A stretch of DNA of 24,000 bases from Bacillota bacterium (GTDB lineage: Bacteria; Bacillota; Desulfotomaculia; Desulfotomaculales; JASEER01). The notes below the pieces were generated by a model. It made no database searches. It had not been told where the DNA came from and was given only the letters and a program-made list of their open reading frames with translations. The stretch is taken from the NCBI GenBank assembly GCA_036804525.1, contig DAIRSE010000016.1, positions 5,661 through 29,660 on the forward strand, given 5' to 3'. Each line of letters begins with the position of its first letter. Within the stretch, counting starts at the first letter, position 1. The translations under genes were made by a program, and so were the position numbers. This document shows, piece after piece, positions 8,348 to 24,000 of the stretch.

Positions 8348-8438
8348 GCATCAGGCACTAAGCGCTAGGCTCCAGGATTAGGGGTTAACCCAAGTCATGA
8401 TGCGTAATGCCCCAATCCTAATGCTTAATGCTTAATGC
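8348..8438. repeat. two heptamer-periodic arrays in the fliP-fliQ spacer
   Basis: Plus 8397-8438 reads atgatgc gtaatgc cccaatc ctaatgc ttaatgc ttaatgc. Plus 8348-8382 reads gcatcag gcactaa gcgctag gctccag gattagg. The palindrome GGGTTAACCC (8382-8391) lies between the two arrays. Confidence 0.85.
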
Positions 8439-8442
8439 CGTT

Positions 8443-9592: not shown

Positions 9593-9987
9593 TTTTTTAC
9601 TCCTTGGGCCTGGTAAGCTCTCGGGGTCAGTATCGCGTGAATGCGCACGGCGAAAGAGTCGTCGAGAACGATGACTTCCCCCTTGGCAAACCGCTGGTCG
9701 TTGATGTAGACGCTGACCGCCTCTCCGACCGCCTTGTCAAGCTCGATCACCGAACCTTCCTGAAGCTGAAGCAGTTCACCGGCGCGGATGGTCTTCTGGC
9801 CCAGCTCCACCCAGAGGCTCAGCTTCACGTCTTCCAGGTAGCGGAGACTGTTCTTGATTTTTGCCGCCGGTGGCTGGCCGTCCAGTTTGGGGAAACTCAC
9901 CTTGTGAACTGTTGTCCGCTCATCACTGAGCGCCGAAAGAAAGGCACTGATTTCACTCTTCCGCAGCACTGATCCCCCCGTTCCCAA
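9589..9987 (-). CDS. fliN: flagellar motor switch protein FliN (SpoA domain)
   Basis: C-terminal FliN/SpoA signature: VELGQKTIRAGELLQLQEGSVIELDKAVGEAVSVYINDQRFAKGEVIVLDDSFAVRI. The start is uncertain: TTG 9987 has no SD, while GTG 9969 follows GGGGGGA. Confidence 0.85.
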   Translation of the reverse strand: MGTGGSVLRKSEISAFLSALSDERTTVHKVSFPKLDGQPPAAKIKNSLRYLEDVKLSLWVELGQKTIRAGELLQLQEGSVIELDKAVGEAVSVYINDQRFAKGEVIVLDDSFAVRIHAILTPRAYQAQGVKK

Positions 9988-9990
9988 CCG

Positions 9991-10485
9991 TTATTGAACG
10001 AGGAACTCGACAATATAGATCTCCTTGGCCTTAAACCCGTGCAGTTCGCCGTTCACCTGGTCCAGCAGTTCCTGCCGCAGCTCGTCGGTCTTGTCCACGG
10101 CCAGGACTTCAGCCGCCGTTTTACTGCGCAGGGTATTGATGATGCGGTCCTTGATCTGCGCGTCCTTCTCGTGGACCTCCTCGGCCTTCTTCTCCGGAAC
10201 CGAGATCGCCAGTCCGATCTTGAGATAGCGCGCGGCCTGGGCATCGGCGAGGTTAACAACGATGGTGCCGAGTTCGACGAGTTTGAGTTTCTCTTCTTTC
10301 TCTTTCTTAGGCAGCTTGAAACCTACTTTCTCCTGCAGGGCGGGAGAAGATTTGTAGAAGGCGGCGGCGATACCGCCGCCTGCTACGAGTAACACTGCCA
10401 TTATTAAAGCAATGAGTTTCACGGGCAGGCGGCGCTTGGGCGCCGGGGCCGCCTGCTGCTCCTTGACTTCATCGGGACCGGGCAT
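9991..10485 (-). CDS. fliL: flagellar basal-body-associated protein FliL
   Basis: Single TM helix (LIALIMAVLLVAGGGIAAAF) and a FliL periplasmic-type domain (VNLADAQAARYLKIGLAISV). Start placed at ATG 10485, 8 nt after AAGGAG. Confidence 0.85.
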   Translation of the reverse strand: MPGPDEVKEQQAAPAPKRRLPVKLIALIMAVLLVAGGGIAAAFYKSSPALQEKVGFKLPKKEKEEKLKLVELGTIVVNLADAQAARYLKIGLAISVPEKKAEEVHEKDAQIKDRIINTLRSKTAAEVLAVDKTDELRQELLDQVNGELHGFKAKEIYIVEFLVQ

Positions 10486-10509
10486 CAGCAAGACTCCTTA
10501 TAACGAAAC

Positions 10510-11421
10510 TTACCGCTTGATATCGATCAGCTCGCGCAGCATGTCGTCCGATACGGTGATGACCCGGGCACTGGCCTGGTAGCCGCGCTGCGTGATGATC
10601 ATGTTGGAGAATTCGGTAGAAAGGTCGACGTTGGACATCTCCAGGTTGCCGGAGAGGGCCTTGCCCCGGCCGCCCGACTCGGGCGCGCCCCACCCTGTAC
10701 TGGTCGGAGTACCGCTGTCATCAAGGGGAACCTCAAGAAGGTTGAATCCCAGCTTCATCAGGTTTTCGGGGTTGGGATAGTTGTCCAGACCGATCGTACC
10801 GATGTAACCGCTTGACCGGGCCCCGGTGTCGTCATAGACAGTTACCCAGACGCCGCCGTCACTGGTGACGCGGATGGTCTCCAACCCGTGCGTGGCAGGA
10901 TCATAAAGACGAATGGGACTGCGGACCGTATCGTCGAACGCCTGAAGGTTTGGACTGATGTCCTGAGTATTCCCCAAAACGTAATGCCCGGACGAGTTGA
11001 CCAGATAACCCTCTTCGTTTACGTAAAAGGCCCCGTCCCTGGTGTAGTAGTATTTCGAAGGCTCGCCGCTGAGATCGACTGTTCCGTCATCACCCGGAGT
11101 ATACGCTCCCAAAAGGAAGAGACCGTTACCGTCAACGGCCATATCCAGGACGCGGTTGGTGGCCATCAGCGACCCCTGGCCGAACAGGCAGTCGATGGCC
11201 GAAACCGCTACCCCCAGACCGACCTGGGCGGGGTTGATGGAGTTGACCCCGATCTGGGAGGTCGAATTACCGCGGATGTTCTGGCTTAACAGCTCGGTGA
11301 AAAGCACACGCCCGCTTTTGAACGAAGTAGTGTTGACGTTGGCGATGTTGTTGGCGATGACGTCCATGCGGACCTGCTGGCTCTTTAATCCAGCCACGCC
11401 TGACATCAGAGAACGAATCAC
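10510..11421 (-). CDS. flgE: flagellar hook protein FlgE (short Firmicute type)
   Basis: 303 aa. N-terminal rod/hook motif (MDVIANNIANVNTTSFK) and C-terminal flagellar basal-body rod-protein-type segment (LEMSNVDLSTEFSNMIITQRGYQASARVI). GTG start lies 8 nt after AAGGAGGG. Confidence 0.85.
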   Translation of the reverse strand: MIRSLMSGVAGLKSQQVRMDVIANNIANVNTTSFKSGRVLFTELLSQNIRGNSTSQIGVNSINPAQVGLGVAVSAIDCLFGQGSLMATNRVLDMAVDGNGLFLLGAYTPGDDGTVDLSGEPSKYYYTRDGAFYVNEEGYLVNSSGHYVLGNTQDISPNLQAFDDTVRSPIRLYDPATHGLETIRVTSDGGVWVTVYDDTGARSSGYIGTIGLDNYPNPENLMKLGFNLLEVPLDDSGTPTSTGWGAPESGGRGKALSGNLEMSNVDLSTEFSNMIITQRGYQASARVITVSDDMLRELIDIKR

Positions 11422-11446
11422 GCTGATTACCCTCCTTAGGATGTGT

Positions 11447-11496
11447 GGGCTGCTTCAGTCGGTCCGCAGCCCGCAGCCTCCTTTCGGGCCGGCTGC
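11447..11496 (-). other. two adjacent GC-rich hairpins in the spacer preceding flgE
   Basis: On the minus RNA, hairpin 1 is GCAGCC-(12 nt)-GGCUGC (11496 down to 11473). Hairpin 2 is GGGCUGC-(12 nt)-GCAGCCC (11472 down to 11447). The arms are interchangeable, so alternative pairings are possible. They lie directly upstream of the flgE SD. Confidence 0.4.
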
Positions 11497-11865
11497 CTAC
11501 TTGACCAATACCGCACTGTCGATGTTGGTGAAGACCTGGTTCTGCGGGCTGTCGTTAACAACAGCCGTAACGATGACCCCGTTAGCCACGCTGGTTACCA
11601 GGGCCATATTCTTATACAGGATCAGCGACTCTCTGGCCCCTTTAAGACGGGCCTCAGCCGCGGCGCTGCTGATCTTTTGCAAGTCGGCCGGTGAAAGAAC
11701 GATGTTCCTTTCACTGAGACGGCGACTGGCATGCGCCGAAAGCTTGACCTGCTGCCCAAATTCGCGGGCCAGGAGCTCGGCGAAAGCACCGGTGTTCTTA
11801 ACCTGTCCCCGTCCTGCCGGTGACGGCCCGATTGGCGGCGTGCCGCCTATCCGATTTACCACCAT
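11497..11865 (-). CDS. conserved Firmicute flagellar-operon protein of unknown function (flg_new type, TIGR02530 as I recall)
   Basis: 122-aa ORF sitting exactly between flgD and flgE. It contains the SAHASRRLSERNI motif that I associate with this family. Family assignment is from memory and has not been searched. Confidence 0.7.
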   Translation of the reverse strand: MVVNRIGGTPPIGPSPAGRGQVKNTGAFAELLAREFGQQVKLSAHASRRLSERNIVLSPADLQKISSAAAEARLKGARESLILYKNMALVTSVANGVIVTAVVNDSPQNQVFTNIDSAVLVK

Positions 11866-11882
11866 CTGGATGCCCCGCCTCC

Positions 11883-12353
11883 TTAAGCTGCTCCCTCAGA
11901 ACTGCTGCCCGCGGTGTCGGTGACAGGTTCCCCGGCGAAAGACGTCTGTTTCGCCGCCGCCTTGATTTCCACAACCCGGGCCAGACTGTACGACCGGCCG
12001 TCAATGATGATGAGCGGGCCTTCGCTGTTGAATGTTACCTTCTCAACGACTCCGGTTACTTCGCCGGACTCGGTCTTGAGGACGACTTCCTTGCCGAGCA
12101 GGTCTAGGGCCTCGCGTACCCGGGTCGCTTTACCCATCTGCTCCAGGACCTGTTCGACGGCGAAGAGTCTCTCCAGCATCCCGAACTGGACCATCTGCTG
12201 TATCTGACTGGTCATATCCTGCGGCTCAAAGGGATTGGGGTTTTTTAGCTGTGCCACAAGGACCTTGAGAAACGTATCCTTCGTAAAAGTGTTGCGGTCA
12301 GTTGTTTGCGTTTTTTGCGTTTGTGTAACCGAACCGATGCCGTCTACGGCCAC
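11883..12353 (-). CDS. flgD: flagellar hook capping/assembly protein FlgD
   Basis: FlgD N-terminal motif (FLKVLVAQLKNPNPFEPQD). Start probably GTG 12353, 7 nt after GGAGG. The ORF-track GTG 12362 directly abuts the SD. Confidence 0.88.
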   Translation of the reverse strand: MAVDGIGSVTQTQKTQTTDRNTFTKDTFLKVLVAQLKNPNPFEPQDMTSQIQQMVQFGMLERLFAVEQVLEQMGKATRVREALDLLGKEVVLKTESGEVTGVVEKVTFNSEGPLIIIDGRSYSLARVVEIKAAAKQTSFAGEPVTDTAGSSSEGAA

Positions 12354-12373
12354 CGGCTCCACCTCCTTAATCG

Positions 12374-14236
12374 TTACGCCAGCAGGTTGATCCCCGGCCG
12401 CATGCCGCTCAGGTGTTCCCCCGCGCCTTCAGACAGCGCCTCGGCAGCCGGCGTATCCGTCACCCGGCGGACCAAAACCCCGTCTGCGGGTGTCCCCTGG
12501 TGTTCGCCGTCCGCTCCAAGGTAAACATCCCCGCCCGAGAGATGGATGTCAAAGCGCATCAGGTTATCCCTAAGCAAGGGCAGCGCCTGCTGCACAGCTT
12601 CCCTCACACCGTGGTCAGCGGCAAAGAACTTGACATCCACGTCCTGAGCCGAAGAATAGACAATCTTTACCCTGACACTTCCCAGGTGGGGCGGGTCCAG
12701 CCGGATCTCCAGCACGGCCTTCCCGTCAGGCAACCACCTGGCCTTTTTAATTGCTTCGGCCACCTTTTCGGCCAGCTGACTGCCGAATGTTTGTACGTCC
12801 GGGGCGCCATCGGGGACGACAGCCTTGAAGACGGCCTTAACCGGCGCATCCAGGGTATTGACGGTTGCCGTAAAAACCGGCACGCCGGGTCGGTCAACCC
12901 CGCCATCCTGCACCGGCCCTTCCAGCCTGGTTTCCAGGATCGCCGCTTGCCCGCGGTTCCCCGTGTTTTGGATGTCTCTCCCGGCCGTCAACGGAAATTC
13001 CGCACCGTTGCGCCTTAAATCGCCTGACCTCGTTCCGTCGGATATGTCCGCGCCCCTCAAGATGATCGTCCCTGCGTTCTGCCTGTCCCCATCATTGGGA
13101 CGCTCAGCGCCGGCAGGCGAATCGGCATCCGCAGCTCCTAACAGCGAAAGCGCCGGAGACTTAGGCGGAATAATTGTCGGACCCGACATACCCGGGCCGG
13201 GAGCAACCGGATTCTTCCCGTCACCCGTCTCAAAGCCCTGCCTGCCTGTAACAGGGGATTTTACAACCGCCGTTTCATCCGGGACATTCTCCGGCGGTAT
13301 TTCGGGCAAGGACAGAACCAGGCCCGAATCCCGACTTGGGTCAACCGCCGACAAAGGTGTGAGGGCCGGCGACCTGGCAACAGCCTTAGATGGTACCTGT
13401 ACGACGTTGCGCACTGTTGCAAGCTGACCGCGCAAGGACGGAGGCAGCATCCTCGGCTCGCCAGGGCTGCCGAACGGTACTCCCGTAGCAAGCTGTTCCA
13501 CTACGGGGTTCCCGGCTGGTAATGTCTCTTCCGGGCCGTTCTTTAATCCGGCAGGCGCTTCAGCACCGGCCGCCGCAAGCAGCTGGTCCAGCCGCGGTTC
13601 AGCAACACCGGCGTCTGCCATAGCCTCAAACCCGACGTCCCAACCGGCACTCGGAGGTGACATGCTTCCGTCCGGCGCGCCGGCCAAAGCATCTGAATGC
13701 GGGGGATTACTGTTAACAGGCAGCGGCGCCAAGTCCGGCACATCAACGTCGTGCAGCGCGTGTTTCAATTCCTCAACCGGTTCACTGCCGCCGTCTCCGG
13801 ACTCGCCGGGGACCTGTGTTTCCTGAAAGACAAAGGCTGGCACGCCAAGACCGGCATGCGCGCACCGGCCGGCGGGCGTCCGAAACCAGACGGGGCCGGG
13901 GGGCGGATCAAAGGCTGCAGGCAGCGGTGCTTCAGCAGGGTATGCGTTTCCCATGCCGGACATTGATTCGGCTTCAAGCGATACCCTTACAGAGGCTGCC
14001 GCTCTTGCCGGGAACACCTCAACATTCTCTTCCGTTCCCGGACAATCTGCTCTGCCGGAGGGCGCTGCTCCTATTGGAAGCGCCGCGACCGCCGACGGGT
14101 GACCGGCAGCCGGCAGCCCTGCTCCCAGGACATCCAGCAGTCCCTGAAGAAAGCACGGCCCCGTGTTTTGGCCGCTGAAGCCGAGTTGCTGTAACTGGAC
14201 CATAATATTCGGCGTTAAAGCCAAACCCGGTAACAA
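12374..14236 (-). CDS. fliK: flagellar hook-length control protein FliK
   Basis: 620 aa with a long Pro/Ala/Gly-rich, low-complexity central region. C-terminal Flg_hook domain present (LEIRLDPPHLGSVRVKIVYSSAQDVDVKFFAADHGVREAVQQALPLLRDNL). TTG start lies 7 nt after AAAGGAGGG. Confidence 0.85.
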   Translation of the reverse strand: MLPGLALTPNIMVQLQQLGFSGQNTGPCFLQGLLDVLGAGLPAAGHPSAVAALPIGAAPSGRADCPGTEENVEVFPARAAASVRVSLEAESMSGMGNAYPAEAPLPAAFDPPPGPVWFRTPAGRCAHAGLGVPAFVFQETQVPGESGDGGSEPVEELKHALHDVDVPDLAPLPVNSNPPHSDALAGAPDGSMSPPSAGWDVGFEAMADAGVAEPRLDQLLAAAGAEAPAGLKNGPEETLPAGNPVVEQLATGVPFGSPGEPRMLPPSLRGQLATVRNVVQVPSKAVARSPALTPLSAVDPSRDSGLVLSLPEIPPENVPDETAVVKSPVTGRQGFETGDGKNPVAPGPGMSGPTIIPPKSPALSLLGAADADSPAGAERPNDGDRQNAGTIILRGADISDGTRSGDLRRNGAEFPLTAGRDIQNTGNRGQAAILETRLEGPVQDGGVDRPGVPVFTATVNTLDAPVKAVFKAVVPDGAPDVQTFGSQLAEKVAEAIKKARWLPDGKAVLEIRLDPPHLGSVRVKIVYSSAQDVDVKFFAADHGVREAVQQALPLLRDNLMRFDIHLSGGDVYLGADGEHQGTPADGVLVRRVTDTPAAEALSEGAGEHLSGMRPGINLLA

Positions 14237-14237
14237 C

Positions 14238-14678
14238 CTATATCCCTCCTTTCTTTATGGAATACGAGATCGTAGCCAAGGCATCCATTTCCCGGTTTGT
14301 CTTCCGCGTCACCTCTCTTTCAAAAGCATTCTGCTGCTTTTGCTTTAACGACTCCAGAACCAGGCGTTCCTTCATCACCGCGAAAGCCTCGCTGCGTTTG
14401 CTGTCAGCCTCCTGCAGGCTTTCCCGTAGTTCACGTTCGGCCTGGGAAATGCGCGCGTCAAGCAGGTTGCGGTAGGCCTCGAAATCAACCATAGCCACGA
14501 TGTCGGACAGGTTGACACCGGACTCCTGAACGTTCGCCAGCATTTCCTTGAGTTTTGCCAGGTTCTCGCGGCAGGCTTGGAGAGCGGCATCGGCCGCCGC
14601 CAGCTCCTGCAGCACGGCCTGTTCCTTAGCCGACTTGACTTGGAGCACCGGTTCCAGGCTGAAAGCAAACTTGGACAT
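14238..14678 (-). CDS. fliJ: flagellar export chaperone FliJ
   Basis: 146 aa, all-helical coiled-coil composition, positioned directly after fliI. Its start overlaps the fliI stop. Confidence 0.8.
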   Translation of the reverse strand: MSKFAFSLEPVLQVKSAKEQAVLQELAAADAALQACRENLAKLKEMLANVQESGVNLSDIVAMVDFEAYRNLLDARISQAERELRESLQEADSKRSEAFAVMKERLVLESLKQKQQNAFEREVTRKTNREMDALATISYSIKKGGI

Positions 14679-16006
14679 CAGTCAGCATCGCCTCCAAGGA
14701 TTTGTCTCAGCATGGACAGCGTGGTTTCGAACTCGCAGTATTCACTTTGGTCCTGCTGAAGAAACTTTATCAGTTCGGGGTATACGGCAAGGGCCTGGTC
14801 GACAAGCGGGTCCGAACCCTTAACGTAGGCCCCGATGTTAATCAAGTCTTCTGCTTTACGATACGCCCCCAGCAGCCGCTTGGCCTTCTGGGCCAGCCTG
14901 ACGTGTTCCTCGCCGGTCACGTCGGGCATCAACCGGCTGTTGCTCTGGAGGATGTCGATCGCCGGGTAGTACCCTGTCCCCGCCAGTTCTCTGGAAAGGA
15001 TGATGTGCCCGTCGAGGATGCCCCGTACCGCATCGGCAATGGGTTCCTGCATATCGTCCCCTTCCACCAGCACGCTGTAGAAACCGGTGATCGTACCCCT
15101 GGCGTTGGTCCCGGACCGTTCCAGCAGCTTCGGCAGGGCCGCGAACACCGAAGGCGTGTAACCCCTGGTCGTCGGCGGTTCGCCGATGGCCAGGCCGATC
15201 TCTCTCTGGGCGAGGGCAAAACGCGTCACCGAGTCCATCAGGAACATAACGTTGTGTCCCCTGTCGCGAAAGTATTCCGCGATGGCCGTGGCCACGGCGG
15301 CGGCGCGCACCCGCACCAAAGCCGACTGGTCAGAGGTAGCCACGACGACGACCGACTTGGCCAGGCTGTTGCCGAGGTGGCGTTCCAGGAAGTCCCGGAC
15401 CTCGCGGCCGCGCTCCCCGATCAGGGCTACAACGTTGACGTCCGACGCGCAGTAGCGGCAGAGCATGCCCAGCAAAACGCTTTTCCCCACCCCGCTCCCG
15501 GCAAAAATCCCCAGCCTCTGCCCCCTGCCGCAGGTAAGGAGAGCGTCGACAGCCCGGATGCCGGTCGGCAGGGGTTCCCTGATGCGCGGCCTCTCTAGAG
15601 GATTGGGAGGATTGTTGTCCACCGGGAACGGCTCCCCTTCGACGTGCTTGCCGCTGAAGGGCCGGCCCAGACCGTCGAGGACCTCGCCCAGTAAGGCCTC
15701 CCCGATCATGATCGTCAGCCGGCGCCCGGCGGGCGTCACCAAGCAGCCCGGGTGCACACCCTTTAAATCACCGAGAGGCATAAGGAGCGACACCTTGTCA
15801 CGGAACCCTACCACCTCGGCCTTAACCGGCAAAGGCTCGCGGGGGACAATGATATCGCAGACCTCGCCTATCGGCACGCTCAAGCCCACAACCTCCACAG
15901 TAAGGCCCACAACCTTGCTCACTTTGCCGCTGACCCTGAGGACCGGGGCATGCTGTATATTCTCCACCCAGTGATTGAGGTCAATGTTCGCTGCACCGCG
16001 CGCCAT
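14678..16006 (-). CDS. fliI: flagellum-specific ATPase FliI
   Basis: 442 aa. Walker A is GSGVGKS and Walker B is VMFLMDSVTR. F1/T3SS ATPase architecture. Confidence 0.96.
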   Translation of the reverse strand: MARGAANIDLNHWVENIQHAPVLRVSGKVSKVVGLTVEVVGLSVPIGEVCDIIVPREPLPVKAEVVGFRDKVSLLMPLGDLKGVHPGCLVTPAGRRLTIMIGEALLGEVLDGLGRPFSGKHVEGEPFPVDNNPPNPLERPRIREPLPTGIRAVDALLTCGRGQRLGIFAGSGVGKSVLLGMLCRYCASDVNVVALIGERGREVRDFLERHLGNSLAKSVVVVATSDQSALVRVRAAAVATAIAEYFRDRGHNVMFLMDSVTRFALAQREIGLAIGEPPTTRGYTPSVFAALPKLLERSGTNARGTITGFYSVLVEGDDMQEPIADAVRGILDGHIILSRELAGTGYYPAIDILQSNSRLMPDVTGEEHVRLAQKAKRLLGAYRKAEDLINIGAYVKGSDPLVDQALAVYPELIKFLQQDQSEYCEFETTLSMLRQILGGDAD

Positions 16007-16009
16007 CGC

Positions 16010-16651
16010 CTAACCCAACCTTAATGCTTTGCGGATGCCTTCCCAGCGCACATCCCAGGAGGCATCGACCAGGCCGTCATCGGTATCGATCTTGCAAGCC
16101 CCGCGCGGCAGGGTAGCATCTTCGACAACAGTCACTTCGCTGCCGGGAACCGCTTCCAGCAGAGCGTTGAGGTTTTCCCGCATCACGCCTGCGTCTTCCG
16201 GGCTGGCCAGAATAGTGATCCGGGGTCTTCCGCGCACTACAGCCAAGGCCTCTTTAGCAATGGCGACAACGGTCTCTTCCTTGAGAGCAAGCTGTTCGGC
16301 GACCAGTCTTTCGGCAATGGCGCAGGCCAGGTTTAACAGTTGGGGCTCGAGGTCGGCCAGAGTCTGCCGGTAGATCTCCCGTGCCTGCTGGAGGACGCCT
16401 AAAGCCTGACGCCGGATTTCAGCGGCTTCCTGCTTCGCCCTGTCCATACCCTCGCGGTAGCCTTCCTGAAAGCCCTGTTCCCGCGCCTTCAGGCGCAGCT
16501 GCTCGCATTCGGTCTCCAGCTCCCTGCGTAAAGCCGCCTCGTCACATACGGGGCGAATCAAGGCCGTGGGCGAAAGGGTTCTCAGGGGCAGCGAGACTTT
16601 GCTCCTGTCTTCAAGGAGGGGCCCTTTCAGAATGCGCCGGCTAGATAACAA
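16010..16651 (-). CDS. fliH: flagellar assembly protein FliH
   Basis: 213 aa with a Glu/Arg/Ala-rich coiled coil followed by a FliH-type C-terminal domain. Positioned between fliG and fliI. Confidence 0.85.
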   Translation of the reverse strand: MLSSRRILKGPLLEDRSKVSLPLRTLSPTALIRPVCDEAALRRELETECEQLRLKAREQGFQEGYREGMDRAKQEAAEIRRQALGVLQQAREIYRQTLADLEPQLLNLACAIAERLVAEQLALKEETVVAIAKEALAVVRGRPRITILASPEDAGVMRENLNALLEAVPGSEVTVVEDATLPRGACKIDTDDGLVDASWDVRWEGIRKALRLG

Positions 16652-17648
16652 GGGCGTCTTCTCCTCCTCTTGAAATAACGATCTCGCCGGCCTCGTCCAG
16701 CGAGCGGATGATCTTGACTATGCGCTGCTGGGCTTCCTCAACTTCGCGCAGGCGCACCGGGCCCATGAATTCGATCTCTTCTTTGAGCATCTGGGCCGCC
16801 CGTTGGGACTGGTTCTTGTAAATCCGTTCCCGAACATTCTCGTTGGCGCCGCGCAAGGCCAAGGCCAGTACCTTGTTGTCGACTTCCCGCAGGACACGCT
16901 GGATCGAGATATCGTCCAGGGTCACGATGTCTTCAAAGATAAACATCTGCTGGCGGACTTCCTCGGCCAGAGACGGATCGTCGTACTCCAGTTCTTCCAG
17001 GATCTTCTTTTCGGTCGCGCGGTCGGCCTGGTTGAGGATCTTGACCAGCGCCTGCACGCCGCCTACCGTGTAACTCTCCTGCTGGACGAGAGCGGCCATC
17101 TTGCGTTCCAGGATCTTCTCCACGTCCTGAACGACTTCGGGAGAAGTTTTGTCCATCAGTGCTATACGCCGGGCGACCTCGGCCCGGATTTCCTGGGGCA
17201 GCATCGCCAGGCAGGCCGAGGCCTGATTGGGCTCCAGGTAGGCGAGGATCATGGCGATGGTCTGCGGATGCTCGTCCCGGATGAAGTTGGCCAGATACCT
17301 GGGCTCCGTCTTGCGCAAAGCGCTGAAGGGCAAGATCTTGGACGTGCTGGTCAGCTTCTTGATGATCTCGGCCGCCCTGTTCGGCCCGACCGTTTTTTCC
17401 AGGATCTCCTTGGCGTATTTGATGCCTCCCTGAAGGATGTACTGCTTGGCCTGGTAGAGATCTTCAAACTCGGTCAGGATGCTGTCGCGCGTCTCCGGGG
17501 AGACTCTCCCCAAGTTGCTGATGGTATAGGTGATCTTCTCGATATCTTCGTCGTAAAAGTTCTGGCGCAGGACCTGGGACGACAGGTCGGCGCCCAGAGC
17601 CAAAAGAAGCACGGCCGCTTTTTCCACACCGCTTAGTGACCTTGCCAT
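16641..17648 (-). CDS. fliG: flagellar motor switch protein FliG
   Basis: 335 aa. N-terminus is GVEKAAVLLLALG and the conserved MFxF motif is present (QQMFIFEDI). C-terminal torque-helix region present. Confidence 0.95.
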   Translation of the reverse strand: MARSLSGVEKAAVLLLALGADLSSQVLRQNFYDEDIEKITYTISNLGRVSPETRDSILTEFEDLYQAKQYILQGGIKYAKEILEKTVGPNRAAEIIKKLTSTSKILPFSALRKTEPRYLANFIRDEHPQTIAMILAYLEPNQASACLAMLPQEIRAEVARRIALMDKTSPEVVQDVEKILERKMAALVQQESYTVGGVQALVKILNQADRATEKKILEELEYDDPSLAEEVRQQMFIFEDIVTLDDISIQRVLREVDNKVLALALRGANENVRERIYKNQSQRAAQMLKEEIEFMGPVRLREVEEAQQRIVKIIRSLDEAGEIVISRGGEDALVI

Positions 17649-17651
17649 CGG

Positions 17652-19172
17652 TTATCTCCCCTGGTCAGTAGTCAGCCAGACCTTGATGATTTCCGCTACC
17701 TGGTCCGGTTTCTGCTTAGCCAGTTCGCGAATCGGCGTCGGGTCCTTGCCGGCCGCCGCTTGACCTCCGAGCTGCCCGACCATGACGGGCGTAACCTCCT
17801 GTACCGCAGGCTGTTGCGGAACCGAAGCCTTACGCCCGCGCAGCACCGACATCGCGACAAGCCCGATGATCGCGAGCAGCAGCACCCCGCCGCCGGCAGC
17901 TACATACAGCATCCACTTGTTCTTCTGCGCGGCCGGTTCGGGAGCGGGCCCCAGGTCTTCCTCAGCACCGGGCTCAAAGGCCAGGCTGGATACAACGACC
18001 TGGTCGCCGCGCTGCTCGTCCAATCCTAAAGCGGCGGTAACAACCTGCTGGATCTGCTGCTGGCGGCCCGGCGCCACCGTATCGTCCACCACAACGGCCG
18101 CTGAGATCCGTTTCACCGCCCCCGGAGCCTTAACGGTGGTTTCCTGAACCGTCCCGACTTGATAAGTTTTGCTCGATTCCTCGCGCTCGTACGAGGACCC
18201 GGCCCCCTGGCCGGTATTGTAGGTAGGCACCTGAGAAAGGCTGTTCTCGGTTTCCGGAATCCCGCCGGCTCCGGCCCCGCTGCCCGTTTCGCGCGCGTTG
18301 TGTTCGGTCAGGACCGCGGAATTCTCCGAAGGGATGCTGGAAACCAGTTCCTGGCGATCAAAATCCAGCTCGGCCGTCACCTGGACGACGAACTTTCCGG
18401 CGCCGAGGACCCGTTCGAGCACCGACTGCACCTTCTTCTCGCACTCGCGCTCGAACGACCGCGTAGCCTCATGCCGGGCTAAGGCCGCACCGGTCAATTC
18501 GTCGGCGGCCATGTCGCCGTTCAGGACACGTCCCCGGGCATCGACGACATGGACGTTCTCGCTGCGCAAACCCTCGACACTGCCGGTGGCCAGGGCGACG
18601 ATGCCTTCGACCTGCTGGCGCGAGAGAGAGGCCCCCGGCTTCAGCTTTAAAACTATGGAAGCCTTGGCTTCCGCACCCTCGTCGCTGAAAACGCTCTTCT
18701 CCGGGATCACCAGGTGGACCCTGGCCTGCTCGACCTCGACAAGCTGAACAATCGTACGGCGGAGTTCTTCCTGCAGGGCCCGCTGGTAGTCGACCTTCTG
18801 TTCGAATTCGGTAACGCCGAAGCGGGTCTTGTCAAAAAGCTCGAAACCCGGGCCGTCGACGCCGATGGCGCCCGAAGTAGCAAGCTGGATGCGGGCCTCG
18901 TGCACCTTGCTTTTGGGGACCTCGATCGTGGTTCCCTGATCTTTGAGGATGTACGGGATCTTCATTTGCTTGAGGCTTTCGGTAATCGTGCCCGCTTCCT
19001 TGGGATCGAGCCCCGTAAACAGCGGGGCGTAATTCACAGTCTTCAGCCAGCTCAAAAGGAGATAGACACCCGCCGCGAAGGCGATCAGCAGGAGGGCGAC
19101 CGCCCCCTTCTGCACGGCGGACATGGCCTGCCAGCGATTCAGCAGGTTCCCCTGTACCGGCTGGTCAGCCAC
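17652..19172 (-). CDS. fliF: flagellar MS-ring protein FliF
   Basis: 506 aa with an N-terminal TM helix, YscJ/FliF ring-building domains and a C-terminal TM helix. GTG start lies 8 nt after GGGAGG. Confidence 0.93.
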   Translation of the reverse strand: MADQPVQGNLLNRWQAMSAVQKGAVALLLIAFAAGVYLLLSWLKTVNYAPLFTGLDPKEAGTITESLKQMKIPYILKDQGTTIEVPKSKVHEARIQLATSGAIGVDGPGFELFDKTRFGVTEFEQKVDYQRALQEELRRTIVQLVEVEQARVHLVIPEKSVFSDEGAEAKASIVLKLKPGASLSRQQVEGIVALATGSVEGLRSENVHVVDARGRVLNGDMAADELTGAALARHEATRSFERECEKKVQSVLERVLGAGKFVVQVTAELDFDRQELVSSIPSENSAVLTEHNARETGSGAGAGGIPETENSLSQVPTYNTGQGAGSSYEREESSKTYQVGTVQETTVKAPGAVKRISAAVVVDDTVAPGRQQQIQQVVTAALGLDEQRGDQVVVSSLAFEPGAEEDLGPAPEPAAQKNKWMLYVAAGGGVLLLAIIGLVAMSVLRGRKASVPQQPAVQEVTPVMVGQLGGQAAAGKDPTPIRELAKQKPDQVAEIIKVWLTTDQGR

Positions 19173-19191
19173 CCCTTAAAACCTCCCTGTC

Positions 19192-19226
19192 ATTGGACGT
19201 AGGACATAGGACATAGGACGTAGGAC
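19192..19226. repeat. heptanucleotide tandem array (5 units; coding strand GTCCTAN)
   Basis: Plus strand reads attggac gtaggac ataggac ataggac gtaggac. It lies immediately upstream of the fliF SD. Confidence 0.9.
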
Positions 19227-19378
19227 TTAAGGAAGAACTCAGGAATCAACTTCGGGCCGGGCCCGCTACGCTCACCTGTTTCGGCCCTACCCGCGAAACC
19301 ATCATAAACCGTATCGGTTGTAGACCGGTATTTCGGCTGTTCCGTACCACGTACGACATACGAACGACGGACGACCGT

Positions 19379-19612
19379 TTTTGAGTCAGGAATCGGCGTA
19401 GCCGATCGATTCGGTCCTCTGTTTCCGACGACGGACGACTGACGACGGACGACCGCTTTTGAGTCAGGAATCGGCGTAGCCGATCGATTCGGTCCTCTGT
19501 TTCCGACGACGGACGACTGACGACGGACGACCGTTTTTGAGTCAGGAATCGGCGTAGCCGATCGATTCGGTCCTCTGTTTCCGACGACGGACGACTGACG
19601 ACGGACGACCGC
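19379..19612. repeat. three head-to-tail copies of a 78-bp unit in the fliE-fliF spacer
   Basis: Units occupy 19379-19456, 19457-19534 and 19535-19612. The first and third are identical; the middle one differs only at its last base. On the coding strand each unit is four GTCGTCN heptamers plus a roughly 46-nt core containing the hairpin AUCGGC-UAC-GCCGAU. More degenerate copies continue down to about 19230. Confidence 0.95.
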
Positions 19613-19906
19613 TTAGACAGGCATGCGCGACAGCTCTTGATAAGCCTCGACCAGCTTGTTGCGGACTTCCAGGGAAAGCTGCATCATCAGGTGGGCCTCT
19701 TCAAGGGCGATCATCACCTGGTGCACGTCCTTGACCTCCCCGGAGAGAAAGCCCTGCACAGCCTTGTCGGCCTTGACCTGCGAAGCGTTGAGCTCCTCAA
19801 TCGCTCTGGTCAGGACCTCGCCGAAAGCCGCCCCCTTGGCCGCCCCCTGCTTATTACCGGGGCTTAACGTGGATAGGCTGCCAACCGCTGAGACTTCCTT
19901 AATCAT
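19613..19906 (-). CDS. fliE: flagellar hook-basal body protein FliE
   Basis: 97 aa with FliE-type sequence (VHQVMIALEEAHLMMQLSLEVRNKLVEAYQELSRMPV), positioned after flgC. Confidence 0.88.
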   Translation of the reverse strand: MIKEVSAVGSLSTLSPGNKQGAAKGAAFGEVLTRAIEELNASQVKADKAVQGFLSGEVKDVHQVMIALEEAHLMMQLSLEVRNKLVEAYQELSRMPV

Positions 19907-19925
19907 TCTTACCTACCCCCGTTCC

Positions 19926-19981
19926 CTGCGACCTACGACATACGACGTACGACTTACGACGTATGACGTACAACGTACGAC
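19926..19981. repeat. heptanucleotide tandem array (8 units; coding strand GTCGTAN)
   Basis: Plus strand reads ctgcgac ctacgac atacgac gtacgac ttacgac gtatgac gtacaac gtacgac. The array fills the flgC-fliE spacer. Confidence 0.9.
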
Positions 19982-19984
19982 GAA

Positions 19985-20377
19985 TTACGCTCCCAACTCA
20001 AGGGCCTTCATGATCATCTGCTTCGAGGCCTCGAAGGCTGATACGTTGGCCTGGTAGGCCCTCGTCGCGCCGATCATGTTCACCATTTCCTGCCCGAGGT
20101 CGACGGCCGGATAGGCTACGAAGCCCTGCGCATCGGCGTCGGGATGGCCGGGCTCCTGCACCCTGACGGGCGGAGAGGGGTCGGGTAACAGCGCGGTCAC
20201 CGCCACCCCCCCGGAAAGCATCTCCGTGAAGACGGGCATGTTGCGCCGGTACGGCCCGCCCCCGGCAGTCCTGGTGGTATGGATGTTGGCGATGTTATCG
20301 GCTAAAAGGTCGAGGCGGAAGCGCTGGGCCGTCATACCGGAACCGCTGATGCGCAAGCCGGAGAAGAACCCGCTCAT
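19985..20377 (-). CDS. flgC: flagellar proximal rod protein FlgC
   Basis: 130 aa. Rod motif LADNIANIHTTRT is present and the C-terminus reads YQANVSAFEASKQMIMKALEL. SD is GGGGAGGAGG. Confidence 0.93.
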   Translation of the reverse strand: MSGFFSGLRISGSGMTAQRFRLDLLADNIANIHTTRTAGGGPYRRNMPVFTEMLSGGVAVTALLPDPSPPVRVQEPGHPDADAQGFVAYPAVDLGQEMVNMIGATRAYQANVSAFEASKQMIMKALELGA

Positions 20378-20381
20378 CTAG

Positions 20382-20738
20382 CTACCTCCTCCCCTGAATG
20401 ACTTCGCGCAGAATGGCAATATGCTTTTTCAGACACTGCGCGGTCGTGTTATACAGCAGTGAGTTGGTGCTTAGCTCGATCATCTCTTCTTCCAGGTCGA
20501 CATTATTCCCGTCGGCGCGCAGTGACGGGCGGCTGTCGCGGACAACCCTGGGCTCGGCGCCCGCCGCCGCTCCCCCTTTCAAGGCATGGTCGAGCACCTG
20601 TTCGAAAACCACGCGCTCTTTCTTATAGCCGGGGGTGTCGATGTTGGCGATGTTCTTGGCCGAGGCCTTTTGCCGCAAAGCCTGGGCGTCAAGGCCCCGG
20701 CGGAGGAGTGTCGTCGTAGGGTCGTCCAGGATACGCAT
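20382..20738 (-). CDS. flgB: flagellar proximal rod protein FlgB
   Basis: Rod motif SAKNIANIDTPGYK is present. Start placed at ATG 20738 (MRILDD), preceded by AAAGGGGGAAGG. The ORF-track start at 20774 lies inside the leader hairpin region. Confidence 0.9.
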   Translation of the reverse strand: MRILDDPTTTLLRRGLDAQALRQKASAKNIANIDTPGYKKERVVFEQVLDHALKGGAAAGAEPRVVRDSRPSLRADGNNVDLEEEMIELSTNSLLYNTTAQCLKKHIAILREVIQGRR

Positions 20739-20780
20739 TGCGCCTTCCCCCTTTGGATCGCTCGGCCTGTTCAAGAGAGA

Positions 20781-20806
20781 AGGCTATCCCGAAACCGGGA
20801 TAGCCT
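20781..20806 (-). terminator. leader hairpin forming the riboswitch expression platform (possible attenuator)
   Basis: Perfect 11-bp stem AGGCUAUCCCG-GUUU-CGGGAUAGCCU on the minus-strand RNA, followed by UCUCUCUU, which is a poor U-tract. It sits about 40 nt before the flgB SD. GAGAGAAGG, just 3' of the aptamer, is complementary to CCUUCUCUC on the 3' flank of the hairpin. Confidence 0.45.
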
Positions 20807-20824
20807 CTGAAAGACTTCCTTCTC

Positions 20825-20923
20825 TCCCGTTTCGGCGACCGGCTACCTTAACCAACTTGACAGTGGCTTTAGGTCCTTGGCTTTGCGTCCCCATCTTTCG
20901 ATGGGTTTGCCTTTTCGACGGAA
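20825..20923 (-). promoter_or_regulatory. c-di-GMP-I (GEMM-I) riboswitch aptamer in the flgB operon leader
   Basis: The minus-strand RNA carries GGCAAACC, then the hairpin CCCAUC-GAAA-GAUGGG, then GGACGCAAAGCC. These are followed by CCUAAA, AGGUAGC, and CCGA. P1 closes as UUCCGU/ACGGGA. The blocks are colinear with the Vc2 aptamer as I recall it. Confidence 0.85.
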
Positions 20924-20969
20924 CATTATCTGCTTGGCCAAACAATGGCGATATTCCCATCTCTAGCTA

Positions 20970-20999
20970 AGTTTACAGGTAGTCTACATAAGTTGACAA
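20970..20999 (-). promoter_or_regulatory. candidate sigma-A type promoter for the riboswitch-flgB leader
   Basis: Minus strand reads TTGTCA-N18-TAAACT, about 40 nt upstream of the aptamer. The match is moderate. An alternative -10, GATAAT at 20925-20930, would truncate P1. Confidence 0.3.
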
Positions 21000-21122
21000 T
21001 AGCTGTCGAAAAGGCGCGGACGTAAACTATGAAAGTTTTTGGCGAAAAACGACGCGTTTCGGTCGGTGCGAAAGGCCCCGAACCTTCCTTCGGTACCACC
21101 GGCCGCGCCGCCGGCAAAGTAC

Positions 21123-21158
21123 AAAAAAACAGGGAGGCCTTGCATGGCAAGACCTCCC
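21123..21158 (-). terminator. Rho-independent terminator, minus-strand specific
   Basis: Minus RNA reads GGGAGGUCUUGC-CAU-GCAAGGCCUCCC: a 12-bp stem with one G-U pair. It is followed by UG and then UUUUUUU. On the plus strand the same position is a C-A mismatch and no U-tract follows. Confidence 0.75.
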
Positions 21159-21405
21159 ATGAAGACGCCGGGGAAGAGCAACAGCATAGGTACTATAACA
21201 AGGTTTTATAATACGATAGCCTTAAAACACATCGGCATCTTAGACAGAAGCACCACAAGCCCGATGAAGATACATCGAGCTAATTCATAAATTCGCACCT
21301 TTTCCAACTATTACAGTTTTTGCATTTGGGTGTTTCGACGTGCTAATTTAATTATTTGTATATTTTCATCAGGCACTACTTATTTTGCTGCAGAAACACC
21401 GGTTA
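21123..21405 (-). ncRNA. candidate sigma-28-dependent small transcript (about 280 nt) with no convincing ORF
   Basis: Bounded by the sigma-28 promoter at 21412-21439 and the terminator at 21123-21158. The interior is AT-rich compared with the rest of the window. Only micro-ORFs are present. Confidence 0.4.
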
Positions 21406-21411
21406 GATAGC

Positions 21412-21439
21412 ATATCGGCATCCTCCCCCTCAAACTTTA
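21412..21439 (-). promoter_or_regulatory. sigma-28 (FliA/SigD) promoter, near-perfect consensus
   Basis: Minus strand reads TAAAGTTT-GAGGGGGAGGAT-GCCGATAT. The consensus forms are TAAA-N15-GCCGATAT and TAAAGTTT-N11-GCCGATAA. Both boxes match 8/8, and the spacer is 1 nt longer than the consensus. Confidence 0.7.
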
Positions 21440-21500
21440 GCCCCCATTTGTAAAAACCCATAAAAATTTTGTTAAGGGCTAAATTTGACTAAATAGGTCT

Positions 21501-21527
21501 TAAGTTTGCCCGGTGGGCTCCGAAACT
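21501..21527 (+). promoter_or_regulatory. sigma-28-like promoter of the flagellin gene
   Basis: cTTAAGTTT-N11-TCCGAAAC. The -35 matches 7/8 of the extended box and the -10 retains the CCGA core. It lies about 60 nt upstream of the flagellin ATG. Confidence 0.5.
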
Positions 21528-21586
21528 ATTGTCAGAGGGGCTTCCCGGGGGCCCTGAAGCTTTACCCGCAAAAGGGGGAAAACAGG

Positions 21587-22693
21587 ATGCAGATTTACCA
21601 CAATATCGCCGCCCTGAATGCCACGAGACAGCTTGGCGTTAACACCCTGTCAGCGAATAAATCCCTGGCCCGCCTGTCCTCGGGTTTGCGCATCAACTCC
21701 GCGGCCGACGACGCCGCCGGGCTGGCCATCTCCGAAAAGATGAGGATGCAGATCAGGGGCTTGGGCCAGGCGATCAAGAACTCGCAGGACGGGACCTCGA
21801 TGGTACAGACCGCCGACAGCGCCCTCCAGGAAATCCAGGGCATGCTCGACCGTATGTACGAACTGGCCAACCAGGCGGCAAACGGGCTTTTGGAAGATGG
21901 CGACCGCACCAAGGCTCAAAACGAGATCGACGCGCTGGTGCAGCAGATTAACACCATTGCTTCGTCTACAAAGTTTAACGGTAAGCTTCTGCTCAACGGA
22001 ACCTTCGGCGTCCAGCTTGATAGCAGTTCAACTCTCGCCGTAGGCAGCAACGGCGTCACCGCCATCGACATTTCAGGGGCAAAGGCGAGCACAACGTATA
22101 CAATTACTCAGACGGTAGCCGGACAGATTGACCTTAGCGATGGTAATGGTAACACGCAGCGGCTTACCGGGCTTGGGAACACCTACACCGGAACACTGAA
22201 CTTCGACAAGCTTGGAGTAAAAATTTCAGGCACGAATCTTGACTTAGACGGCACTTCTCCCCTTAACGGCCTTACCATCGTTACCACCGCTAACGCAGCC
22301 GTTTCTCTGCAGATCGGCGCCGAGAATGACGTTAACCAGAGAATCGGCGTGACCATCGCTAACCTGAGCGCCTCTGCCCTTGGTATCGGCACCCTCAGCA
22401 TCAGCGACCAGACTTCGGCCCAGAGTGCCATGGATGCCATCAACGCGGCTATGGCCACGGTCAACACCGAGCGCGCCAAGCTGGGCGCCCTCCAGAACCG
22501 CCTTGAGTATACAATCAAGAACCTCGGCGGCACCCAGGAAAACATGACCGCCGCCGAGGCGCGTATCCGCGACGCCGACATGGCCAAGGAAATGATGGAG
22601 TTCACCAAGTTCAACATCCTGAACCAGGCAGCGACGGCGATGCTCGCCCAGGCCAACCAGATGCCGCAGACCGTCCTGCAGCTCCTGAGGTAA
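21587..22693 (+). CDS. fliC: flagellin
   Basis: 368 aa from ATG 21587 (SD AGGGGGA). N-terminus is MQIYHNIAALNATRQL...LSSGLRINSAADDAAGLAISEKM. C-terminus is LGALQNRLEYTI...ILNQAATAMLAQANQMPQTVLQLLR. The ORF-track start at 21506 adds a non-flagellin leader. Confidence 0.95.
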   Translation: MQIYHNIAALNATRQLGVNTLSANKSLARLSSGLRINSAADDAAGLAISEKMRMQIRGLGQAIKNSQDGTSMVQTADSALQEIQGMLDRMYELANQAANGLLEDGDRTKAQNEIDALVQQINTIASSTKFNGKLLLNGTFGVQLDSSSTLAVGSNGVTAIDISGAKASTTYTITQTVAGQIDLSDGNGNTQRLTGLGNTYTGTLNFDKLGVKISGTNLDLDGTSPLNGLTIVTTANAAVSLQIGAENDVNQRIGVTIANLSASALGIGTLSISDQTSAQSAMDAINAAMATVNTERAKLGALQNRLEYTIKNLGGTQENMTAAEARIRDADMAKEMMEFTKFNILNQAATAMLAQANQMPQTVLQLLR

Positions 22694-22711
22694 CCAAAGC
22701 TCCCGCTCCTG

Positions 22712-22748
22712 AAGAGGCCGTCCGGTCTGAGGGCGGCCTCTTTTCTTT
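22712..22748 (+). terminator. Rho-independent terminator of flagellin
   Basis: AAGAGGCCGTCC-GGTCTGA-GGGCGGCCTCTT forms a 12-bp stem with one G-U pair. It runs into TTTTCTTT. Confidence 0.85.
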
Positions 22749-22779
22749 GCCCGGCGGTCCTATTTGGGCCGCCGTTCTC

Positions 22780-22807
22780 TAAAGTTGGGCTTTGTTCAAC
22801 CCGATTA
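22780..22807 (+). promoter_or_regulatory. sigma-28 promoter for flaG-fliD
   Basis: TAAAGTTG-N12-CCCGATTA, about 35 nt upstream of the flaG ATG. Confidence 0.6.
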
Positions 22808-22840
22808 GCAAGGTAAGAAGAGGATACCGGAGGGGTAACG

Positions 22841-23173
22841 ATGAACGTTACCGGTGTGGGGAGCGCGGCGCCCGCCGCGCGCATTATCCAGAACCGCGTT
22901 CAGGAGCCCGCAAAGCCGCCGGGCGTGCAGAGTCCGCCGGACGGGCCGCAGCGTACCGAAGAGCCGGGCGGCGGACCGTCGCGCGTCCGGATGCCCCTGG
23001 ACGGCGGAACTTTTCTGCAGTTTTCTGTGCACGAAGAGACCAAGGACGTCATCGTACGGGTGCTGGACAGCGTTACGGGTGAGGTCATCCGGGAATTTCC
23101 GCCGGAGGCCATCCTGGACATGGTCGCCCGGATGCTCGACCTGGCCGGCCTGCTCGTCGACGAAAAGCGTTAA
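22841..23173 (+). CDS. flaG: flagellar protein FlaG
   Basis: 110 aa with the FlaG-family C-terminal segment (LQFSVHEETKDVIVRVLDSVTGEVIREFPPEAILDM). SD is GGAGGGG. Positioned between flagellin and fliD. Confidence 0.85.
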   Translation: MNVTGVGSAAPAARIIQNRVQEPAKPPGVQSPPDGPQRTEEPGGGPSRVRMPLDGGTFLQFSVHEETKDVIVRVLDSVTGEVIREFPPEAILDMVARMLDLAGLLVDEKR

Positions 23174-23191
23174 GAACGGGGTGATGACCAA

Positions 23192-24000
23192 ATGGCCGGC
23201 ATCTTTCGCATCAGCGGCCTGGCTTCAGGCATCGACACCGAACAGATGGTCCGTGACCTGATGAAGGCCCACCGGATGCCCCTGGAAAAGATTAAGCAGC
23301 AGAGACAGGTCCTGGAGTGGAAGCGGGCGGACTACCGGGTGATCAACAAGGCCCTGTACGATTTCCGTACCGGTACCGCCTTCTCTATGAGGCTCGGCTC
23401 CACCTACACGAAGCGCACGGCGACCAGCAGCGACAGCGGCGTTGCAACGGCCTCGGTGTCCTCAAGTGCTGCCAGCGGGACCTATCAGGTTACGGTGAGC
23501 AGGCTGGCCGCGGCGGCCTACAACGTCAGCGCGGCGCCCGTTTCCGCCAGCCAGGCGGATAAAGTCGACGCCGCCGCCACCCTGTGGTCGCAGCGGAATA
23601 AGTTCGCTGACACAAACTTCGGGTGGATCAACGCCGACGCAACGGACGCGATCAGCGTATCGTTGAGCGGCACCACATTTAATCTGACGCACGACGCCAT
23701 AGTGAGCGTCGCTTCGATCGACGTGGACGGCGTGGGATATACGGTTTTCACAGACCAGGCAGCCTACGACGCGAGCGGCGACCCGAATAAGGTCCTGGTG
23801 AACCTGGATACCGGCGGGTTAACCTTCAACAACACCATCAACGCCGGACAGACCATCAACGCCGGCTACACATACAACACCAAGACCTTCAGGTTCACCG
23901 TCACCACGTACGGGGACATCAGCGCCAACACGCAGGAGTTCACCGTCGACGCCGCGCAGAAAAGCCTGAACGCCGTGCTGGCCGACATCTCGGCGGCTAG
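23192..24000 (+). CDS. fliD: flagellar filament cap protein FliD (5' partial, runs off the window)
   Basis: My own translation from ATG 23192 gives MAGIFRISGLASGIDTEQMVRDLMKAHRMPLEKIKQQRQVLEWKRADYR..., a typical FliD N-terminus. The frame stays open to position 24000. It is absent from the ORF track because no stop codon is reached. Confidence 0.88.
   Translation, partial: MAGIFRISGLASGIDTEQMVRDLMKAHRMPLEKIKQQRQVLEWKRADYRVINKALYDFRTGTAFSMRLGSTYTKRTATSSDSGVATASVSSSAASGTYQVTVSRLAAAAYNVSAAPVSASQADKVDAAATLWSQRNKFADTNFGWINADATDAISVSLSGTTFNLTHDAIVSVASIDVDGVGYTVFTDQAAYDASGDPNKVLVNLDTGGLTFNNTINAGQTINAGYTYNTKTFRFTVTTYGDISANTQEFTVDAAQKSLNAVLADISAA

Follow-up and report, generated by a model that had tools for sequence, protein, structure and literature searches.

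We analysed a 24,000-nt stretch of a Bacillota genome (contig DAIRSE010000016.1 of assembly GCA_036804525.1, positions 5,661 to 29,660; hereafter the window), which carries a Firmicute-type flagellar locus of a Desulforudis-like bacterium. Between the divergent flagellin gene and flgB, the minus strand carries a compact unit (21439 down to 21123) that is probably, though by no means certainly, a stand-alone gene for a discrete structured small RNA (sRNA) of ~280 nt transcribed by sigma-28. Judged from the sequence, the candidate RNA has its own promoter and its own terminator, outside any mRNA. The coordinates of the unit and its neighbours are collected in Table 1.

The promoter of the unit, with its spacer letters, reads TAAAGTTT-GAGGGGGAGGAT-GCCGATAT. 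When a consensus of -35 TAAA and -10 (G)CCGATAT/A about 15 nt apart was applied, TAAA-N16-GCCGATAT of this site fitted it exactly. The pattern TAAA-N14-17-CCGATA had one match in the 24 kb (expected 0.06; a match was given by 6 of 100 shuffles), and the full 16-base consensus with up to 3 mismatches again found one match in the window, at the same site (expected 0.08). A first-pass annotation of this DNA had called it the best sigma-28 match of the window, better than the flagellin promoter itself, and for the consensus used here this was borne out, because the flagellin promoter is a poorer match that passes neither pattern. The orthologous site was kept in Desulforudis sp. Tu-874 (locus L001), in DRI-14 (locus L081) and in locus L082. 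The Tu-874 version is TAAAGTTT-N11-ACCGATAT, with a spacer 1 base shorter, and the DRI-14 version, with an N12 spacer, is identical to the window at 24 of 28 positions (86%). A second GATGCCGATGTG motif, -10-like, at 21239..21228 was dropped because it is not conserved. The G run in the promoter spacer varies between nearly identical strains, with G5 in Tu-874 (L001 3320-3331, N11) and G6 in DRI-14 (L081 2319-2331, N12).

The unit ends at a strong intrinsic terminator. Its stem has 12 pairs, 8 of them G-C and one U-G (A-C on the plus strand), closed by a 3-nt loop and followed by UGUUUUUUUG (U7). The hairpin energy was -22.7 kcal/mol (z = -5.6), and in a scan of 4001..24000 (20 kb) the site topped 31 terminator-like sites by a wide margin. 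A T run follows the hairpin on the minus strand alone; the terminator is oriented for that strand only. The fold agreed with the first-pass description of a 12-bp stem with U7 whose sole non-Watson-Crick pair is G-U only in the minus-strand RNA, while the distance of ~160 nt given there to the flgB promoter and riboswitch has to be corrected to ~115-125 nt for the hexamers (21009..20970) and ~200 nt for the aptamer. Two further remarks made there also held: no other minus-strand feature upstream needs this terminator, as neither the list of open reading frames (ORFs) nor Pfam gave a minus-strand gene upstream of the unit, and the unit is an AT-rich stretch with micro-ORFs only in a GC-rich locus, as the ORF list and a GC content of 36% over 21200..21500 against 55-69% in the flanks confirmed.

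The block 21161..21132, which holds the hairpin, was identical at 30 of 30 positions in every relative (P = 8e-5 given the rate at which the body changes); the relatives share the stem, which is followed there by a weaker tail, CGUCUUUUG. Neither terminator arm had a conserved alternative pairing in the window, Tu-874 and DRI-14. When the 3' arm was blocked in folding, the partners that the 5' arm took in the window were not those it took in the relatives; in all three sequences the terminator was favoured over the alternatives by 13-14 kcal/mol. With no conserved antiterminator found, the sequence favours a terminator that acts constitutively and an RNA that is discrete. As a separate observation, 21132-21161 is invariant in sequence as well as in structure, and both strands read GGGAGG-N6/7-ATG, which is ribosome-binding-site-like; the 3' arm of the terminator, CCUCCC, resembles an anti-Shine-Dalgarno sequence.

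Conservation was compared mainly between the window and DRI-14, three distinct sequences (window, Tu-874 and DRI-14) being available in all. The neutral yardstick, 592 four-fold degenerate sites from six flanking genes, was 60% identical. The RNA body, at 73%, lay above this yardstick (P = 1e-5) and above the adjacent spacer, which reached 36% (Fisher P = 1e-10); the flgB promoter region was 86% identical. Conservation dropped directly past the U tract, 370 bp from the flagellin promoter. Because the body exceeds the yardstick and conservation falls past the terminator, the conserved block runs from promoter to terminator, as expected of a transcription unit. Conservation in related genomes, on which the first-pass annotation had made its reading depend in part, was found for promoter, body and terminator alike in both Tu-874 and DRI-14.

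The secondary structure was modelled by RNAalifold on the three sequences, and the model was reduced to five helices (P1, P2, P3, P4 and the terminator) without a broken pair. In this reduced model 132 of 132 cells were standard pairs, compared with 37-48% in controls with partners slid by 1-3 columns, a figure that is partly built in since the helices were picked for zero broken pairs. Three pairs carried compensatory changes, one in P1 and two in P3, and four more changed on one side and stayed paired via G-U. Helix positions had changed at 10 of 88 sites, with the pair always kept, against 55 of 183 unpaired positions. Hairpin P3 was stable in all three sequences (-13.4 to -14.8 kcal/mol, z about -4.4), and in the window it holds a U-G pair that is A-C on the plus strand. 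Between Tu-874 and DRI-14 only 7 RNA columns vary, 2 of which are the two sides of one P3 pair (G-C to A-U; P about 0.01 by simulation). Several helices depend on G-U pairs of the minus-strand RNA, and P4, with three of them, is minus-strand specific. The consensus fold reached -64.9 kcal/mol on the minus strand against -57.4 kcal/mol on the plus strand, where P1, P2 and P4 are lost. These models suggested that the RNA forms several helices, of which at least P1 and hairpin P3 are well supported.

Several results weigh against a discrete structured sRNA. In the full RNAalifold model 9 pairs were broken in at least one sequence, and statistical support for covariation is weak because two of the three distinct sequences are 97.5% identical, leaving effectively two lineages. 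The covariation that the first-pass annotation had named as a check was present as three compensatory pairs in three sequences, though 22 of 500 shuffles reached the observed covariation values. In single-sequence folds a local hairpin (21213..21206 with 21199..21192) competes with the long-range helix P2, which makes P2 uncertain; P4 overlaps the 5' arm of this hairpin, so that the two are mutually exclusive. The weaker U tract of the relatives makes some read-through plausible. In a target scan of the locus genes only, the best complementarity joined the terminator 3' arm (CCUCCC plus flanks) to the Shine-Dalgarno region of fliF and recurred in both species, but it was no better than shuffles, and the arm is buried in the -22 kcal/mol hairpin. 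Finally, the protein, metagenome and viral-contig searches described below gave no homologue beyond a small clade. On the other side, the sRNA reading put forward in the first-pass annotation gained from the conserved promoter, body and terminator, from the compensatory changes, and from finding neither a conserved ORF nor a conserved antiterminator; the read-through alternative that it had named beside it can still appeal to the weaker U tract.

That alternative survives best, although we judge it rather unlikely. It holds that the site is a feedback promoter resembling PD3(fla/che) of B. subtilis that serves mainly to feed sigma-28 transcription into the flgB operon, which includes the sigma-28 gene, in positive autoregulation. 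The terminator would then act as a gate, either leaky or regulated, with the short RNA arising as a by-product, a situation compatible with an sRNA. To our knowledge no terminator intervenes at PD3 of B. subtilis, whereas here a 12-bp hairpin of -22.7 kcal/mol with U7 stands in the way, with no conserved antiterminator. Moreover, 240 nt of conserved structured RNA and an invariant terminator are more than a plain feedback promoter requires, and the 106 nt past the terminator are not conserved. The layout does match that of B. subtilis, where the flgB operon contains sigD and its SigA promoter is preceded by a SigD promoter (PMC3874003): here, too, the sigma-28-type site points the same way as the downstream flgB promoter, and the sigma-28 gene belongs to the operon. 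In B. subtilis PD3 is within ~300 nt of the flgB start (PMC3874003). Also in favour of this reading are the tail CGUCUUUUG of the relatives and a predicted contact further downstream, in which GCCUUUUCGAC (21015..21005) of a read-through RNA would pair with GUCGAAAAGGC (20919..20909) at the 5' edge of the cyclic di-GMP (c-di-GMP)-I aptamer.

The two arms of this contact form a perfect 11-nt inverted repeat (21005-21015 and 20909-20919), and the upstream arm overlaps the candidate flgB -35 hexamer TCGACA. The pairing appeared in the minimum-free-energy folds of the read-through leaders of both the window (11 bp) and DRI-14 (7 bp). On these folds, a double role is conceivable but distinctly improbable: a late-class sRNA would be released, and partial read-through would give a sigma-28-dependent flgB transcript whose 5' GCCUUUUCGAC misfolds the aptamer. 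If this were true, the flagellar operon would escape c-di-GMP control once sigma-28 is active, a riboswitch bypass dependent on promoter choice.

A role at the level of DNA is a weaker contender, to which we give little credence. Here the region would be an extended AT-rich upstream region of the flagellin promoter, with UP elements, regulator sites or curvature, and the RNA-like motifs would be incidental. The hag promoter of B. subtilis requires an upstream element, and the sequence next to the flagellin promoter is AT-rich and highly conserved: the spacer between the two divergent promoters was identical to DRI-14 at 53 of 55 positions (96%) over 21494..21440, above the conservation of coding sequence, and the flagellin promoter region (21495..21532) at 37 of 38. 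The spacer also holds an inverted repeat, AAATTTAGCCC / GGGCTAAAGTT, with arms 32 bp apart, one of which overlaps the -35 of the minus-strand promoter, and it may serve as a shared upstream (UP-like) element or regulator site. What a DNA-level role leaves unexplained is that compensatory changes maintain hairpins, that the G-U-dependent helices exist in the minus-strand RNA only, that the edge of conservation coincides with the U tract 370 bp from the flagellin promoter, and that the promoter, which is conserved, is the only consensus match of the window.

A cis-acting sensor, that is a riboswitch-like or protein-dependent attenuator whose 5' domain gates sigma-28 transcripts into the flgB leader, seems slightly less probable again. 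The arrangement seen here, with a structured domain, then an intrinsic terminator and then an operon, is classic for attenuators, and the invariant terminator sequence could reflect contact with a protein or an RNA. However, such a switch would be expected to show an alternative pairing, and none was conserved for either terminator arm; a separate promoter and the 106-nt non-conserved spacer between terminator and leader also speak against it. The unit had no Rfam match at gathering scores. A search of 20700-21700 with Rfam 15 up to E = 10 gave c-di-GMP-I only, the hits inside 21123..21404 being at chance level (E 1.2 and 8.8), so that even at E = 10 no match supported a sensor.

A small protein or peptide of 10-48 codons is very improbable and was rejected as a reading, since no ORF pairs conserved length with conservative substitutions: the region does offer several micro-ORFs, three of them length-kept, and GGAGG-N6/7-ATG in the terminator on both strands, but the changes are mostly non-synonymous, a Shine-Dalgarno sequence is lacking, the terminator ORFs vary in length and Pfam gave no match. 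The three micro-ORFs (21, 23 and 26 codons) are equally long in the relatives only because the alignment happens to be free of insertions and deletions where they lie; none has a Shine-Dalgarno sequence, and their synonymous and non-synonymous changes numbered 3 vs 9 in the first and 0 vs 12 in the last, with ~10 non-synonymous in the middle one. The ORFs starting at the ATGs of the terminator differ in length between the sequences (39 vs 55 aa on the minus strand, 48 vs 10 aa on the plus strand) and have only the hairpin in common. No conserved micro-ORF was found on either strand between the window and the relatives, and a Pfam search with the two longest ORFs of the region returned nothing. 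By its reading frames, then, the unit is non-coding.

If the unit is indeed an sRNA gene, sigma-28 RNA polymerase would initiate near 21404 on the minus strand and transcription would stop at the intrinsic terminator (21158..21123), both ends and the sigma-28 dependence being predictions from the motifs. The flagellin and sRNA promoters diverge across their shared 60-bp AT-rich spacer. Since the gene for sigma-28 closes the flgB operon, the RNA would be expected to build up alongside flagellin, once expression of sigma-28 and the hook-basal body genes has taken place and not before. By analogy with other sigma-28-dependent sRNAs, it would most likely act in trans on mRNAs or on a protein. Two specific ideas about its action were set aside. 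An apparent match between the 3' tail of the sRNA and the start region of flagellin (AAAACAGG with CCUGUUUU) was dropped, as it is not kept in the relatives, and a CsrA sponge is unlikely because the RNA has two GGA motifs only.

Among the matches listed, the unit was found only in two related species, Tu-874 (FlgB 85% identical) and DRI-14 (FlgB 82%, FliF 92% and flagellin 74%). One SRA contig carries it as well, identical to DRI-14, and the Bacillota metagenome-assembled genome (MAG) GCA_049324175.1 (locus L083) differed from the window at 1 base in 325 compared. This difference, a T/A at window position 21350, falls inside the candidate RNA in a stretch predicted to be unpaired. The FlgB search of genome contigs yielded at least 80 loci, of which, among the matches listed, one was a close relative (Tu-874) and the other 79 were distant; in the protein searches with FlgB, flagellin and FliF, identities went from ~50-60% to the DRI-14 level (74-92%) with nothing in between. 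In the distant loci L084-L088 and L091-L093 the genes are ordered differently and the unit has no counterpart. Metagenome scans gave 0 matches with a 25-mer of the terminator and 2 with a two-block probe, both in unrelated AT-rich sequence, and the viral-contig scan gave 0 matches. When the unit was compared by blastn with the window and L001-L091, orthologues were recovered and no further copies, and no terminal inverted or direct repeats hinting at a mobile element were found at the unit.

Table 1. Features of the candidate unit, its predicted helices and the surrounding flagellar locus (positions in the window)
Feature	Position	Strand	Details
Sigma-28 (FliA/SigD)-type promoter of the unit	21439..21412	-	TAAAGTTT-N12-GCCGATAT
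Predicted transcription start	21403..21404	-	A residues, 8-9 nt past the -10; from the usual sigma-28 spacing
Candidate RNA body	21162..21404	-	AT-rich, non-coding, structured; 177/243 (73%) identical to DRI-14
Helix P1	21400..21394 with 21335..21329	-	7 pairs; one G-C->A-U compensatory, one U-A->U-G, 0 broken
Long-range helix P2	21317..21309 with 21200..21192	-	9 pairs; one A-U->G-U, 0 broken
Hairpin P3	21281..21273 with 21266..21258	-	9 pairs, 6-nt loop; two compensatory, one wobble change
Helix P4	21257..21251 with 21213..21207	-	7 pairs, G-U rich, weakly supported; one G-C->G-U, 0 broken
Terminator hairpin	21158..21132	-	GGGAGGUCUUGC-CAU-GCAAGGCCUCCC
U tract and predicted 3' end	21123..21131	-	UGUUUUUUU
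GC-rich spacer, terminator to flgB promoter	21015..21120	-	38/106 (36%) identical to DRI-14, not conserved
AT-rich spacer between divergent sigma-28-type promoters	21440..21499	none	~60 bp
Flagellin sigma-28-type promoter	21500..21527	+	TTAAGTTT-N12-CCGAAACT, read from sequence
Flagellin gene	21587..22693	+	followed by flaG and fliD on the same strand
Sigma-70-like flgB promoter candidates	20970..21009	-	TCGACA-17-TAGACT and TTGTCA-18-TAAACT
c-di-GMP-I riboswitch aptamer, flgB leader	20921..20831	-	Rfam RF01051, 75.8 bits; 97% identical to DRI-14
flgB	20738..20382	-	followed by flgC, fliE, fliF and the remaining operon genes through flhA, flhF, flhG and a PilZ/YcgR-like gene
FliA/WhiG-family sigma-28 gene	640..1413	-	last gene, distal end of the flgB operon; TIGR02479 247 bits (cutoff 189.6)

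The divergent intergenic region between flagellin and flgB measures 850 bp. At the other end of the flgB operon, Pfam found sigma-70 regions r2, r3 and r4 in the product of 640..1413; by these domain matches, the cognate sigma-28 factor is encoded by the same organism, within the flgB operon. The operon may be under double c-di-GMP control, through the riboswitch of the flgB leader (20831-20921, minus strand, with a terminator-like platform) and through the PilZ/YcgR-like gene (1416-2078, minus strand) that lies just before the sigma-28 gene. A riboswitch of related type was seen elsewhere in a distant relative (L093 4463-4556, FliF 50% identical), where c-di-GMP-I-GGC (59.5 bits) lies between flgC and fliE and not upstream of flgB. 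In a Candidatus Desulforudis sp. MAG (L092) a motif of ~40 nt, GGGAAACATGTGCCAATGTG..AAAAA(T)TGGTACTT, occurs in two copies (3319-3352 and 3707-3745), one upstream of the c-di-GMP-I riboswitch and the other directly upstream of flgB, and may be a duplicated promoter or operator.

Within the operon, the 440-bp gap between fliE and fliF holds a 78-nt unit repeated in tandem 3.2 times (19364-19611, 98% matches), each with a small hairpin (GACCGAATCGATCGGC...); in DRI-14 the repeats of this gap are fewer and degenerate (L081 4115-4260). Just upstream of the fliF Shine-Dalgarno sequence, CATAGGA occurs five times on the plus strand (19191-19226; GTCCTAT on the mRNA strand), and this array is also present in DRI-14.

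The position of the candidate is unusual, at the junction of early (flgB) and late (flagellin) genes beside a c-di-GMP riboswitch in a deep-subsurface sulfate-reducer lineage, and the locus is a concrete place to study how transcription of early genes, c-di-GMP sensing and sigma-28 output are brought together. Because the RNA seems confined to one small clade, its general significance would be limited unless its target or a read-through mechanism proved unusual. Tu-874 and DRI-14 bear strain designations and not MAG labels, so they may be cultured, and if so the hypothesis is directly testable.

Among known systems, the C. difficile flgB leader offers a partial parallel. Nothing at this locus corresponds to the invertible flagellar switch of C. 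difficile, and that species is not known to have a terminated, sigma-28-driven unit upstream. Both organisms place a c-di-GMP-I riboswitch (Cd1 in C. difficile) before the early flagellar operon with sigD in the operon (cf. PMC7446863). For a few C. difficile ncRNAs, SigD-type promoters have been predicted upstream (PMC7438776). PD3(fla/che) of B. subtilis is similar in being a sigma-D promoter upstream of the sigma-A promoter of a flgB operon that carries the sigma-D gene, with positive feedback (PMC3874003), while the present locus differs by a strong terminator and ~240 nt of conserved structured RNA between the promoters, followed by a c-di-GMP-I riboswitch.

Most characterised sRNAs that depend on a flagellar sigma factor come from Proteobacteria. 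Those of Campylobacter are late-class and FliA-dependent, are encoded within or beside flagellar genes and regulate flagellar synthesis by feedback. Likewise, E. coli has four sigma-28-dependent sRNAs derived from untranslated regions (UTRs), MotR, FliX, FlgO and UhpU, which are late-class and FliA-dependent, lie within or beside flagellar genes and exert feedback on the synthesis of flagella (PMC10578931). Unlike these mRNA-UTR-derived, Hfq-dependent RNAs, the candidate would be an independent intergenic unit of a Gram-positive lineage, ~280 nt long and highly structured, and it has no homology to them.

The closest parallel lies in the Firmicutes themselves. RnaC of B. subtilis is shorter than the candidate and is not known to be encoded inside the flagellar locus. 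The first-pass annotation had known of no sigma-28-dependent sRNA in Firmicutes, which was mistaken, as RnaC/S1022 is transcribed exclusively by SigD (PMC4366234). RnaC/S1022, which acts in trans and represses abrB, resembles the candidate in its Firmicute host, its dependence on the flagellar sigma factor and its organisation as a stand-alone non-coding gene with promoter and terminator; it differs in that no sequence or Rfam relationship was detected between the two and in that the candidate sits between the flagellin gene and flgB. As far as sequence comparison can tell, the candidate shares its regulatory logic with the known flagellar-sigma sRNAs without a detectable common sequence or structure family, and, if true, it would be a second, unrelated Firmicute example beside RnaC/S1022.

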